The notes beneath the pieces are model-generated. The model was given only the letters and a program-made list of their open reading frames with translations, was not told the DNA's origin and did not search any database. A stretch of DNA of 62,788 bases, filler included. It is 6 parts of 6 records of this genome, joined end to end, with 100 filler letters (N's around TTAATTAATTAA, not from the genome) between each part and the next. Parts side by side here need not be neighbours in the genome. Positions count along the whole stretch, not along the records: positions 57,529 to 62,788 come from DRR723986_4346; 5 more parts are not named here. The stretch is one strand, 5' to 3'. The position numbers and the translations under genes were made by a program. Each line of letters begins with the position of its first letter. Position 1 is the stretch's first letter. Positions 13,290-60,608 of the stretch are shown in pieces.

Positions 13290-13389
13290 NNNNNNNNNNN
13301 NNNNNNNNNNNNNNNNNNNNNNNNNNNNNNNNNTTAATTAATTAANNNNNNNNNNNNNNNNNNNNNNNNNNNNNNNNNNNNNNNNNNNN
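13290..13389. other. Assembly/concatenation spacer (N run with TTAATTAATTAA linker); same spacer at 18609-18708, 32189-32288, 50109-50208, 57429-57528
   Basis: Identical N-flanked linker that puts stops in all frames; flanking genes are truncated. Confidence 0.99.
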
Positions 13390-57528: not shown

Positions 57529-57568
57529 CAAGGAAGGCGGCGAGTTCAACTTCAAGGCGATGGACTGA
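57529..57568 (+). CDS. mmsA: C-terminus of probable methylmalonate-semialdehyde dehydrogenase
   Basis: KEGGEFNFKAMD* resembles roseobacter MmsA termini (from memory); an acyl-CoA dehydrogenase sits at the other end of the fragment. Confidence 0.6.
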
Positions 57569-57595
57569 TCCCCAAAGCCCCTTGGATCAGGTGGA

Positions 57596-57623
57596 AGGCC
57601 CGGCATATCGCCGGGCCTTTTTT
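57596..57623. terminator. Intrinsic terminator
   Basis: AAGGCCCGGC-ATATC-GCCGGGCCTTTTTT. Confidence 0.85.
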
Positions 57624-57627
57624 CGTG

Positions 57628-58146
57628 TCAGCCGGTGACCTCCAGCAGGAACCCGGTCGTGGTGTCGCCAATGGTGATCTGAGCCTGCCCGCCGCGCCCG
57701 AGACCTTCTGCGCCGAACACGGCCCCCGCGCTGGCAACGATCATCAGAAAGCCCGTGGCCGGACCGCGTTCGCTCACCTCAATGCTGAGCGCGCCGGAAT
57801 TGGTTTCGCCCCAGCTCCAGCGCGATGACATCAGATCCTGGATCTCGAAATTCCCAAGGCTGCTGCCAACCCGCGCCGTGATGCGCTGACCGCGCAGGCG
57901 CTGGATTTCGAAATTGCCCAGTTGGGCGGTCGGGGGCATGCCGATATTGAACCGGGCCGTGGGCGGCATTCCGATGTTGAAGCCGCTGACCTCCAGCAGG
58001 AAGCCTTCGCCCTCAGCCGGGCTGATGCTGGCCCGCCCGCGCGGGGCGGCGGCGACCTGGATGATCGGACTGGTTGCCGCAAGGGCCGGGACGGTGTGAA
58101 GAACGGGAAGGCTGGCAAGACCGGCCAGCAGGGTTCTGCGTTGCAT
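57628..58146 (-). CDS. Tat-exported hypothetical protein built from repeated short peptide blocks
   Basis: GGAGA RBS; MQRRTLLAG...ALA signal; GFLLEV[S/T]G x2, FNIGMPPTA x2, LGNFEIQ x2, WSWGETNSG. Confidence 0.85.
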   Translation of the reverse strand: MQRRTLLAGLASLPVLHTVPALAATSPIIQVAAAPRGRASISPAEGEGFLLEVSGFNIGMPPTARFNIGMPPTAQLGNFEIQRLRGQRITARVGSSLGNFEIQDLMSSRWSWGETNSGALSIEVSERGPATGFLMIVASAGAVFGAEGLGRGGQAQITIGDTTTGFLLEVTG

Positions 58147-58319: not shown

Positions 58320-58739
58320 ATGCCAGTCAGTTTCAGGATCTTGCCCGAACGGGGGCTCGTCTTTGTGCGCTATACCGGGTTTGCAGTCCTGGACGAAAGC
58401 TCTCGGGTGTTCGGCCAATACGCAGCCCACCCCGATTTCCAGCCCGGCCAGAAACAGCTGGTGGACCTGTCGGGCGTGACCGGGATGGAGAGGGACTACG
58501 TCAAGCTCTTTGCGCTTCAGGCCCGAAAGGCAGACGCGTTCCTGGGCACCGGGGCGCAGACCCTGCTTGTCTATTTCGCGCCGACCCCGATTGCGATGGA
58601 CCTGGCCGAAGCGATCATCCGGTCGTGGGAGCCATCCGGTGCAGTGATTCCGTTGATCCAGGAAGACGAGAGCGACGCGCTGAAACTGTTGGGGCAGCCT
58701 GAACGCAGCTTTGAGGAACTGCTTCAGGGCGCGCGCTGA
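58320..58739 (+). CDS. Conserved-looking hypothetical protein (SpoIIAA/STAS-like fold suspected)
   Basis: GAGG RBS; LVFVRYTG, HPDFQPGQKQLVDLSGV, ESDALKLLG. Confidence 0.75.
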   Translation: MPVSFRILPERGLVFVRYTGFAVLDESSRVFGQYAAHPDFQPGQKQLVDLSGVTGMERDYVKLFALQARKADAFLGTGAQTLLVYFAPTPIAMDLAEAIIRSWEPSGAVIPLIQEDESDALKLLGQPERSFEELLQGAR

Positions 58740-58814: not shown

Positions 58815-59483
58815 TTAGCAGGGTAGCGGTGGCAGCCCCTCGCAGGATTCATCGGCAATGAAGTTGTCGGTGTCGTCGTCCATTGGGTTGCCCACCTGAA
58901 TCTCGCTCTCGCAGCCCGGCTCGAAACCTGTATCGCAGCGGAAGCGGAGTTTCAGAGACGCGCCTTCGTGGATCGCGTAGGCGGCAAGGGCAAAGGCCAT
59001 GGCGAAGACCGCCAGCAGGAAGCCCAAGGGACTCAGACCCTGGGTGGTGCCGCCGCCGCCGTCATCGTCGCCACCGGCCGTCTGACCAGATCCACGCACA
59101 TTTCCGATGCGGTAGTCGAACGAGATGTTGGGGGCCTGACCGGACATGGTGAAATCGAGATCGACACCGTCTTCGTTCACGTCCACGACGCGCAACGGCA
59201 TCGCACCTTCCTGAAGGAACCGGCGTGAAAGGCGCATGATTCCCTGCGGCAGGGTCATGCGGCGAAACTCATCTCCCTGAGCGGTTCGCAGCATGATCAC
59301 GACCTCTCGTCGCCGGTTGCCGGGATAGACACGTGTCACGATCCGACCGCGCGGGCTATCCGCAACCGCGATACCGATTGGCAAGATCCCTTCGGTCGCT
59401 TGCGCGAAGACCCGCGCCGAAAGCGGGACGCCAAGCGCGCCCATGGACGTCAATGCAAGAGAGATGAAGTTTCTTCTTTTCAT
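58815..59483 (-). CDS. Tat-exported hypothetical protein with Gly/Asp linker, hydrophobic helix and Cys-containing acidic tail
   Basis: AGGAG RBS; MKRRNFISL; GGDDDGGGGTT; four C-terminal Cys. Confidence 0.8.
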   Translation of the reverse strand: MKRRNFISLALTSMGALGVPLSARVFAQATEGILPIGIAVADSPRGRIVTRVYPGNRRREVVIMLRTAQGDEFRRMTLPQGIMRLSRRFLQEGAMPLRVVDVNEDGVDLDFTMSGQAPNISFDYRIGNVRGSGQTAGGDDDGGGGTTQGLSPLGFLLAVFAMAFALAAYAIHEGASLKLRFRCDTGFEPGCESEIQVGNPMDDDTDNFIADESCEGLPPLPC

Positions 59484-59928: not shown

Positions 59929-60396
59929 TCACCAGCTCAGGGTGCGCACATCATCGGCAAAGAGCCAGCTTTCCACCACCGGCCAGGTGCCCATTGTGAC
60001 ACCATCGATATATTCCTCTTCCGTCAGACCGGCGGCACCGGAACAGGCCGAACACATAATCACCGTCCCGCCATCGGCCATGAAGGCCGTCAGCATGTCC
60101 TGGATCGAGGTTCCAGCCTCGGCCATCGGGCCAGGGATATGGCTGGGGCGGTCGATTTCAGCCAGATAAACCGCACGCACATTCAGCCAGATCGCGGTGT
60201 CGTAGCCGTTGGCCAAGGCCCGGCGATGCGCGAACAAGATCGCCTTGGCCGCCGACCAGGTGTCATCGGTGGTCAGGTTGATGAACAGGCGCGGGCGCGC
60301 GGCCTCTTCATCCTGCGCGATCGCGTGGCTCGGGGCGAGGACCGCTGCCATGGTCAGAATCAGGGCGGCGGCGAGGGTCAATCGTTTCAGGGTCAT
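59929..60396 (-). CDS. Exported DsrE/DsrF-like protein
   Basis: Signal peptide; LFINLTTDD, IWLNVRAV, GGTVIMCSACS, TLSW. Confidence 0.82.
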   Translation of the reverse strand: MTLKRLTLAAALILTMAAVLAPSHAIAQDEEAARPRLFINLTTDDTWSAAKAILFAHRRALANGYDTAIWLNVRAVYLAEIDRPSHIPGPMAEAGTSIQDMLTAFMADGGTVIMCSACSGAAGLTEEEYIDGVTMGTWPVVESWLFADDVRTLSW

Positions 60397-60608
60397 CTTC
60401 TCTGTCTCCCGTTGGTTGATCGCGCCCAACCTGCCCGCAGGGATCGCACCCGAATTTGACTTCGATCAAACCTTCCAGCGCTGGAAGGTTATTTGTTTCG
60501 TGGCGCTACGGCGCGTTTTCAATCTTTGCGAAACCTCGACAACCAACAGTTGCACCCGGACACTTTGGCAGTCAGAGTGAAGGGGTTTCATCTACAAAGG
60601 ATTTCCTC

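Follow-up and report, generated by a model that had tools for sequence, protein, structure and literature searches.

The gene considered here spells out several short peptides twice, and spells them differently each time. It lies in a window (the whole stretch of DNA analysed, 62,788 nucleotides) made of contigs concatenated by N-runs around the linker TTAATTAATTAA, whose five cores lie at 13334, 18653, 32233, 50153 and 57473, and it belongs to the last contig, which runs from 57529 to the end. An open reading frame (ORF) at 57628-58146 on the minus strand encodes a protein of 172 amino acids, P0001, and the ORF list and the translation together place every repeat copy within it. We regard the repeats as old intragenic duplications whose peptides have been held by purifying selection as their silent sites drifted, with a probability of about 0.85. 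Along the protein, the features are as follows.

57628..58146, minus strand: coding sequence (CDS) of the hypothetical protein P0001, probably exported; from translation, homologues, syntenic orthologues and the ratio of non-synonymous to synonymous substitution rates (dN/dS)
58075..58146, minus strand: probable twin-arginine-type signal peptide, amino acids 1-24, MQRRTLLAGLASLPVLHTVPALAA, judged by invariant residues
57988..58005, minus strand: GFLLEV copy 1, amino acids 48-53, predicted beta-strand
57955..57981, minus strand: FNIGMPPTA copy 1, amino acids 56-64, first unit of the 30-nucleotide tandem duplication
57925..57951, minus strand: FNIGMPPTA copy 2, amino acids 66-74, second unit of the tandem
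57901..57921, minus strand: LGNFEIQ copy 1, amino acids 76-82, widespread in the family, a helix in the AlphaFold2 model
57838..57858, minus strand: LGNFEIQ copy 2, amino acids 97-103, in P0001-P0010 only, a strand in the AlphaFold2 model
57736..57753, minus strand: GFLMIV, amino acids 132-137, a degenerate GFLLEV-like word within a predicted long helix (129-149)
57637..57654, minus strand: GFLLEV copy 2, amino acids 165-170, C-terminal strand, with TG and then the stop codon after it

The FNIGMPPTA units stand in tandem, FNIGMPPTA-R being followed by FNIGMPPTA-Q at amino acids 56-75, and Tandem Repeats Finder reports them at 57924-57981 with a period of 30 nucleotides (nt), 1.9 copies and 82% matches; the LGNFEIQ copies are separated by a spacer of 14 residues. 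A prior sequence-only reading had counted five synonymous and no non-synonymous changes in the 27 nt of FNIGMPPTA, three synonymous changes in LGNFEIQ, and an exact run of 16 nt shared by the GFLLEV pair (57636-57651 and 57987-58002), and every one of these counts was reproduced. The GFLLEV run is part of a direct repeat of 25 nt (57630-57654 and 57981-58005) that is 92% identical.

High G+C content gives rise to many spurious ORFs, and the resemblance between copies might in principle be a product of chance, of non-coding sequence or of a wrong frame. The longest exact peptide repeat is of 9 residues, a length reached by none of 20,000 shuffles of the protein (maximum 8, once), and the repeats exceed chance. 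The gene has conserved orthologues with a dN/dS well below 1, and a scan of the region against Rfam gave two sub-threshold matches (E<=1), both lying outside the CDS but for one base of overlap. Chance and artefact are excluded.

A word-indexed search of 5.8 billion proteins returned 13 homologues at E<=0.01 (34-95% identical), those named being from Nioella sediminis and Pararhodobacter sp. CCB-MM2, and a profile search of 1.84 billion representatives returned 15 proteins at E<=0.001. Searching for related loci with an alignment of the 10 closer sequences yielded five, from a Nioella metagenome-assembled genome (MAG; L001), N. sediminis (L002), Nioella sp. MMSF_3534 (L003), N. ostreopsis (L004) and Pararhodobacter (L005). 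A 139-amino-acid protein, a cupredoxin and an acyl-CoA dehydrogenase are common neighbours in all five, to which the four Nioella loci alone add a 222-amino-acid protein and a GCS2-type ligase, and the orthologous locus is intact in four of the five. By sequence comparison, then, the gene is real, conserved and narrow in distribution.

L001, L002 and L004, the intact orthologues from Nioella, carry two FNIGMPP-type and two LGNFEIQ units at the same codons as the window gene does, and the codons that differ between copies change from species to species: position is conserved, and synonymous drift has proceeded independently in the lineages. Between the window's own copies the proportion of synonymous sites that differ (pS) is 0.79 for FNIGMPPTA and 0.72 for LGNFEIQ, near saturation. 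Among four Nioella-type genes (six comparisons) pS is 0.29-0.72 in the motif columns and 0.45-0.57 in the rest of the mature protein, and divergence within the window's gene is thus as large as, or larger than, that between species. The corresponding proportion for non-synonymous sites (pN) is 0.03-0.11 in the motif columns against 0.16-0.35 elsewhere in four of the six comparisons, three to six times fewer changes; the gap narrows between the window and L002 (0.085 against 0.164). Whole-gene dN/dS for the window against L001, L002 and L004 is 0.18, 0.21 and 0.28, respectively. Two alleles, that of the window and one other, are seen in contigs of four environmental runs, with 26 variants scored in the CDS, 19 synonymous and 7 non-synonymous. 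All six that fall within the FNIGMPP, GNFEIQ and GFLLEV cores are synonymous, and the non-synonymous variants lie at L76M, A74, L84, R88, A32 and V15. The conserved cores are FNIGMPP and GNFEIQ, since orthologues and environmental alleles vary in the TA after the one and in the L before the other. Two of the checks suggested beforehand, dN/dS across orthologues (0.18-0.28 within Nioella) and variation in populations, as seen in these contigs, agree with selection on the peptide. Of the two origins originally offered for the repeats, old copies under strong amino-acid selection or independent acquisitions, it is the first that positional conservation in three orthologues, near-saturated pS and low motif pN in most comparisons bear out. 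Purifying selection on the cores, with drift at synonymous sites, explains how identical peptides come to be encoded by differing DNA.

Several observations weigh against so tidy an account. Between L001 and L002 the motifs show no excess constraint (pN 0.069 against 0.073), and in L002 the FNIGMPP units now read FNAGMAP and YSIRMPP. In Nioella sp. MMSF_3534 the gene is deleted at its N-terminal end: the orthologue at L003:5998-6264 lacks its first 85 codons and the upstream region, leaving residues 86-172 directly beside the gene for the 139-amino-acid neighbour. This copy is probably a deletion pseudogene, the loss indicating that the gene is dispensable in that strain, and together with the divergence in L002 it means that constraint is not absolute. 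Just 1 of some 5.3 synonymous sites distinguishes the GFLLEV copies, a paucity that could stem from codon bias, occasional conversion between copies being possible as well. The family tree, built without the columns of the second LGNFEIQ, resolves poorly, good support being confined to 4 of its 16 inner branches. Presence of the second copy takes three changes on the best tree, of which the well-supported branches force one, so that a single origin of that copy is allowed but not demonstrated. Lastly, the search for other copies of the units, described below, covered five related genomes and the window alone.

The distribution of units within the family suggests how the repeats may have arisen. 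FNIGMPP is single in six members (P0013, P0014, P0016, P0017, P0018 and P0020) and tandemly doubled in thirteen (P0001-P0012 and P0015), both units of P0006 being off consensus. The first LGNFEIQD(L)M is widespread, and the second, confined to P0001-P0010, aligns without gaps to unrelated residues elsewhere (AVTTTLRA in Pararhodobacter, for example), and so has supplanted an existing strand. Two members, P0014 and P0018, have MLGNFEIQD in place of GFLLEV as their C-terminal strand. The order and mechanism that we infer begin with a tandem duplication of 30 nt (10 codons), which would have given FNIGMPPxx twice. A second LGNFEIQD(L/F)M copy of about 10 codons would have replaced an existing strand 21 residues downstream, leaving length unchanged, and two similar hairpin strands ending GFLLEV(S/T)G lie near the two ends of the mature protein. 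Thereafter purifying selection has kept the core residues as synonymous sites drifted to near saturation. Convergent point substitutions, rather than the copying of a tract of about 30 nt, might instead have produced the second LGNFEIQD(L/F)M, since it replaced a strand without change of length, has left no tract of DNA identity to prove copying, and is a word that recurs in unrelated proteins and so is selectable in many backgrounds. Convergence is nonetheless improbable, for the ten-residue identity LGNFEIQDLM (found in P0007, and as the first copy in P0009, P0010 and P0013) calls for no fewer than eight simultaneous replacements in an unrelated strand, and no intermediates occur among the 19 full-length family members.

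The sequence-only reading had itself preferred the second of its two origins, in which each copy came from a separate donor by insertion or patchwork at the level of DNA. The differing codons, the interspersed order of the repeats and the existence of the same words in other organisms speak for it. The order, written A-B-B-C-C-D-A (A for GFLLEV, B for FNIGMPPTA, C for LGNFEIQ), has a simpler account in a tandem B-B, an in-place C..C and terminal hairpin strands A..A. Degenerate coding patterns for GNFEIQ and FNIGMPP found this gene only in five related genomes (G133-G137; reversed control, 0 matches). Allowing up to three mismatches, neither 27-nt variant matches anything in the window but itself, and the degenerate LGNFEIQ pattern finds the two known copies only. 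An absence of further genomic copies had been named in advance as telling against donors, and across these five genomes and 62.8 kb that absence is what was found. Furthermore, all three intact Nioella orthologues have both copies where the window gene has them, synonymous divergence between the copies is what age alone predicts, codons fit host usage in every phylum in which the words occur, and the 11 loci that a scan of a viral collection for GNFEIQD turned up are each single and chance-like. Separate donors are thus very improbable, and that origin is largely refuted. Several DNA-similar copies per genome, the mark of a repeated or selfish in-frame mobile element, were likewise not found in G133-G137 or the window. 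A cause at the level of DNA, such as a palindromic element or a conserved RNA, was considered because NFEI and GMP are most often written in palindromic codons; it was ruled out, as codons vary freely with host G+C.

What the old, selected repeats do must be sought in the protein. All 14 aligned family members share residues M1, R3, R4, L7 and A23, and R3/R4 are followed by LLAGLASLPVL...ALA-A. The invariant arginine pair points to export by the twin-arginine translocation (Tat) pathway, which P0001 probably takes, judging by these residues. The nearest Atlas cluster bears the label TAT_signal with a weak score of 0.79, and the Tat models of Pfam and NCBIfam do not match P0001. No Pfam family reached threshold (the best, RTC_insert, PF05189, scored 13.1 bits at E 0.13 against a gathering score of 23 bits), nor did NCBIfam give any match. 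An AlphaFold2 model from the family alignment is moderately confident (predicted local distance difference test, pLDDT, 79.7; predicted template modelling score 0.75) and contains ten beta-strands, short helices at amino acids 73-79 and 81-84, and a helix of 21 residues at 129-149. Foldseek found no match in PDB at E<=0.001; a wide search with VIA-align gave a best Z of 6.1, to generic beta-barrels and porins, one match being the secretion protein FapF (Z 4.0). As modelled, P0001 is a small beta-rich exported protein. The fold model alone does not account for so tight a hold on such short peptides, and the reason for the constraint may rather be that the motifs act as autonomous units of recognition or assembly, more than as strands of a fold.

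That possibility arises from the same words in proteins otherwise unrelated to P0001. Weak matches of the profile search and a genome scan provided the starting points, and the set of motif proteins was retrieved with a motif-rich query, which biases its flank consensus and copy numbers. When the motifs were masked and the 63 motif-bearing proteins compared by BLAST, they fell into 14 unlinked groups, that is, at least 13 beyond the P0001 family. Among their hosts are Pseudomonadota, Bacteroidota, Acidobacteriota, Actinomycetota and Chloroflexota, and the carriers include peptides with double-glycine leaders, proteins with signal peptides and helical proteins.

FNIGMPP occurs in three copies after a signal peptide in P0021 and in three copies after a conserved helical leader in P0022-P0024 (a homologue search with P0022 gave two candidates); P0059 has two exact copies, and L031, L059/L073 and L067 have one after a similar leader. 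The loci L031:749-1372(-), L067:3806-4090(+) and L073:3539-4093(+) and the proteins P0022-P0024 represent leader-type small peptides, with a helical N-terminus (..EKLN.L.L..EE....G.LL..), then EVEGF, then one to three (V/I)xGFNIGMPP units. The C-terminus of the L031 peptide, AYDLNPND, is a word found also in the LGNFEIQD proteins P0029 and P0047.

LGNFEIQD occurs in four copies in P0026. In the Novosphingobium protein P0030 (in L008) a double-glycine leader is followed directly by three, the third forming the C-terminus, and P0032 has the same layout with LGNFDIQD as its third. About 20 small signal-peptide proteins, one from Blastocatellia, combine two or three LGNFEIQD with a repeated second word, SPRDxASGQATG; a Thermoleophilia protein has three LGNFEIQ, one with D after it; and in another group one or two LGNFEIQD open a conserved helical segment, LGNFEIQDLMSxYNQAExL. 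Outside the P0001 family 27 of 32 GNFEIQ proteins carry two to four copies with unconserved linkers between them, and the extended consensus is [QE]-D-[KR]-L-GNFEIQ-D-[LVI]-[KM]-[SA]-P, both figures being drawn from the biased set. Three proteins from Bacteroidia MAGs bear FNIGMPP and a C-terminal LGNFEIQ(D/R) together, and in a profile-profile comparison with the Nioella family only 16 columns align, around FNIGMPP. Everywhere the codons of the words follow the composition of the host, so that conservation is at the level of the peptide.

The helical LGNFEIQD group is modelled as one long helix, with a pLDDT of 88-93 over the motif, and in the P0001 model LGNFEIQ is a helix at amino acids 76-82 and a strand at 97-103. 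Most members of the helical group start with a signal-peptide-like N-terminus. The needle family of the type III secretion system (PF09392) was entertained for this group and rejected, P0057 scoring 16.2 bits (E 0.012) against a gathering score of 29.4 bits; P0029 scored 16.4 bits against DUF5407, whose threshold is 25.3. Small signal-peptide proteins built of several recurring words (P0028, P0043, P0045, P0048 in L010, P0050, P0052, P0053, P0058 and a group of about 122 amino acids, P0036-P0044) add SPRD[AV]ASGQATG(K/R), WHPEIDKVK, GQNSGGTITNQR, GFMDYTDD and DDSLLWVKKP to the vocabulary. These multi-word proteins have no family assignment, and ASGQATG, WHPEIDK and GGTITNQR went unmentioned in the literature searched.

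We therefore consider it possible, at somewhat less than even odds, that FNIGMPP and LGNFEIQD are autonomous short linear motifs, whether ligands of a shared partner, self-pairing strands or helix starts, or processing units. Copies would be kept because each serves a function rather than a fold, and the second LGNFEIQ would have been recruited for that reason; this adds to, rather than replaces, the account of old duplications under purifying selection. In its favour are the 14 groups that BLAST leaves unlinked after masking, the multi-copy habit and extended consensus of the GNFEIQ proteins, the double-glycine leaders placed directly before three copies in P0030 and P0032, the Bacteroidia proteins that bear both words on so few alignable columns, the host-typical codons, and the prediction of one peptide as helix and strand within P0001 and as helix in the helical group. 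Recurrence in unrelated exported proteins suggests units that function by themselves.

Other results pull the opposite way. The neighbourhoods of 10 motif loci share no partner gene, and no maturase, C39-peptidase transporter or immunity gene lies within flanks of 3-6 kb, the extent varying with the locus. Proteins with the motifs are rare: 400 other Pseudomonadota genomes gave seven matches to the GNFEIQ pattern against one for a control, none of them LGNFEIQD and, by eye, chance-like. The bias of retrieval bears on the flank consensus and on the copy numbers alike. Lone FNIGMPP, moreover, is common in metagenomes by chance or in other families, a scan for its coding pattern having found at least 120 loci with one match each. 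Among the matches listed, most belong by eye to other contexts, namely permease N-termini (DPFNIGMPPS), cupredoxin-like proteins with REFNIGMPPT...KCDVHPWM and short out-of-frame ORFs; a few are members of the P0001 family (L044 and L046) or peptides of the leader type (L031, L059/L073 and L067). The evidence consequently rests on multiple copies and on the co-occurrence of the two words. Five viral contigs (L147-L150 and L153) contain an ORF of about 146-160 amino acids with MGNFEIQDPP near its start, which is probably unrelated to the motif proteins.

A stronger statement, that FNIGMPP and (D/E)(K/R)LGNFEIQD(L/V/I) are portable modules of 7-12 residues, single or multivalent, in exported or leader-bearing peptides across five phyla, is tentative and on balance unlikely. 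The notion that the peptides are portable, already present in the sequence-only reading, survives in part: the same words do occur in unrelated proteins of other phyla, and their host-type codons preclude donation at the level of DNA. Were the words portable, the Nioella protein would be a folded carrier displaying two copies of each, and would point to an undescribed but widely understood code of recognition or assembly in bacterial envelopes or secretions.

Among known systems, P0001 resembles other old internal peptide repeats in its near-identical peptides, saturated synonymous sites and positional conservation in orthologues, and differs in that its units are of 7-10 residues and of three kinds, one copy having replaced a strand without adding length. 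Like short linear motifs, the words form islands of 8-12 residues in unalignable sequence, often multivalent and with charged linkers; unlike them, they span several bacterial phyla, in exported proteins. Functional amyloids such as curli CsgA and Pseudomonas FapC combine a signal peptide with several conserved units and variable linkers, an architecture that the motif proteins share. The units here are far shorter, no amyloid-system operon lies nearby, and the only structural link is the generic beta-barrel match. With the multi-core precursors of ribosomally synthesised peptides and double-glycine bacteriocins, P0030 and P0032 share a double-glycine leader followed by three motif copies, and P0022-P0024, L031 and L067 a conserved helical leader followed by one to three FNIGMPP. 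P0001 differs from these in being a 172-residue signal-peptide protein, a folded domain of 148 residues with a predicted Tat-type signal rather than a leader and cores, and the flanks of the double-glycine loci hold no maturase, transporter or protease. The palindromic elements of Rickettsia insert a short peptide-coding unit into unrelated proteins, with many DNA-similar copies per genome, whereas here the words sit in a single gene per genome, and their DNA is no more alike than the peptide requires.

In itself the history of the gene is what textbooks describe for old intragenic repeats under purifying selection, and serves mainly as a clean example. It is the side result that could matter, in that peptides of 7-12 residues are conserved, often in several copies, in many small exported proteins of several phyla that are otherwise unrelated. 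The motif proteins are named by no Pfam or NCBIfam model, and the full-text literature searched makes no mention of FNIGMPP, LGNFEIQD, their parts or the other words of these proteins, which suggests that the recurrence is new as far as these searches reach. Should the motifs prove autonomous, they would offer a direct handle on a partner or a principle of assembly in bacterial envelopes.

The neighbours of the P0001 gene in the window are the genes for the 139-amino-acid protein and an aldehyde dehydrogenase; the latter is convergent, and the repeat gene lies 60 bases downstream of its 3' end. A scan for promoters and terminators of the region found no terminators and a sole promoter-like site, on the plus strand. 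After the aldehyde-dehydrogenase gene, at 57568-57623 on the plus strand, is a G+C-rich hairpin with a T-run, which the simple terminator scan missed and which gives a sub-threshold Rfam match to the Rhodobacter small RNA SorX (22.7 bits against a gathering score of 46.6, E 0.006). Among runs that carry the gene none is firmly listed as RNA and two metagenomic ones are RNA by guess; contigs of one of these, X5, span most of the repeat CDS.

As to the source, the nearest genome by shared words, G001 (20% in common with the window), is not close kin. Proteins from two window contigs are 72-73% and 95-96% identical to those of Nioella genomes, against 47% and 55% to G001, and the source is a Nioella-like marine bacterium of the Rhodobacterales. 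A family search among 132 genomes centred on G001 gave no match and is uninformative, G001 being no true relative.

On the far side of the repeat gene, the gene for the 139-amino-acid protein (58320-58739, plus strand) is divergent from it, adjacent in all five loci and without a Pfam family. A DsrE-like gene (PF02635, 23.3 bits against a cut-off of 22.7) at 59929-60429 on the minus strand stands between a small secreted ORF and the cupredoxin gene and has no counterpart in the five syntenic loci, which implies insertion in the window or loss in its relatives. The conserved neighbour of 222 amino acids (58815-59483, minus strand), also without a Pfam family, has a signal-like N-terminus containing RR and a hydrophobic segment at its C-terminus.

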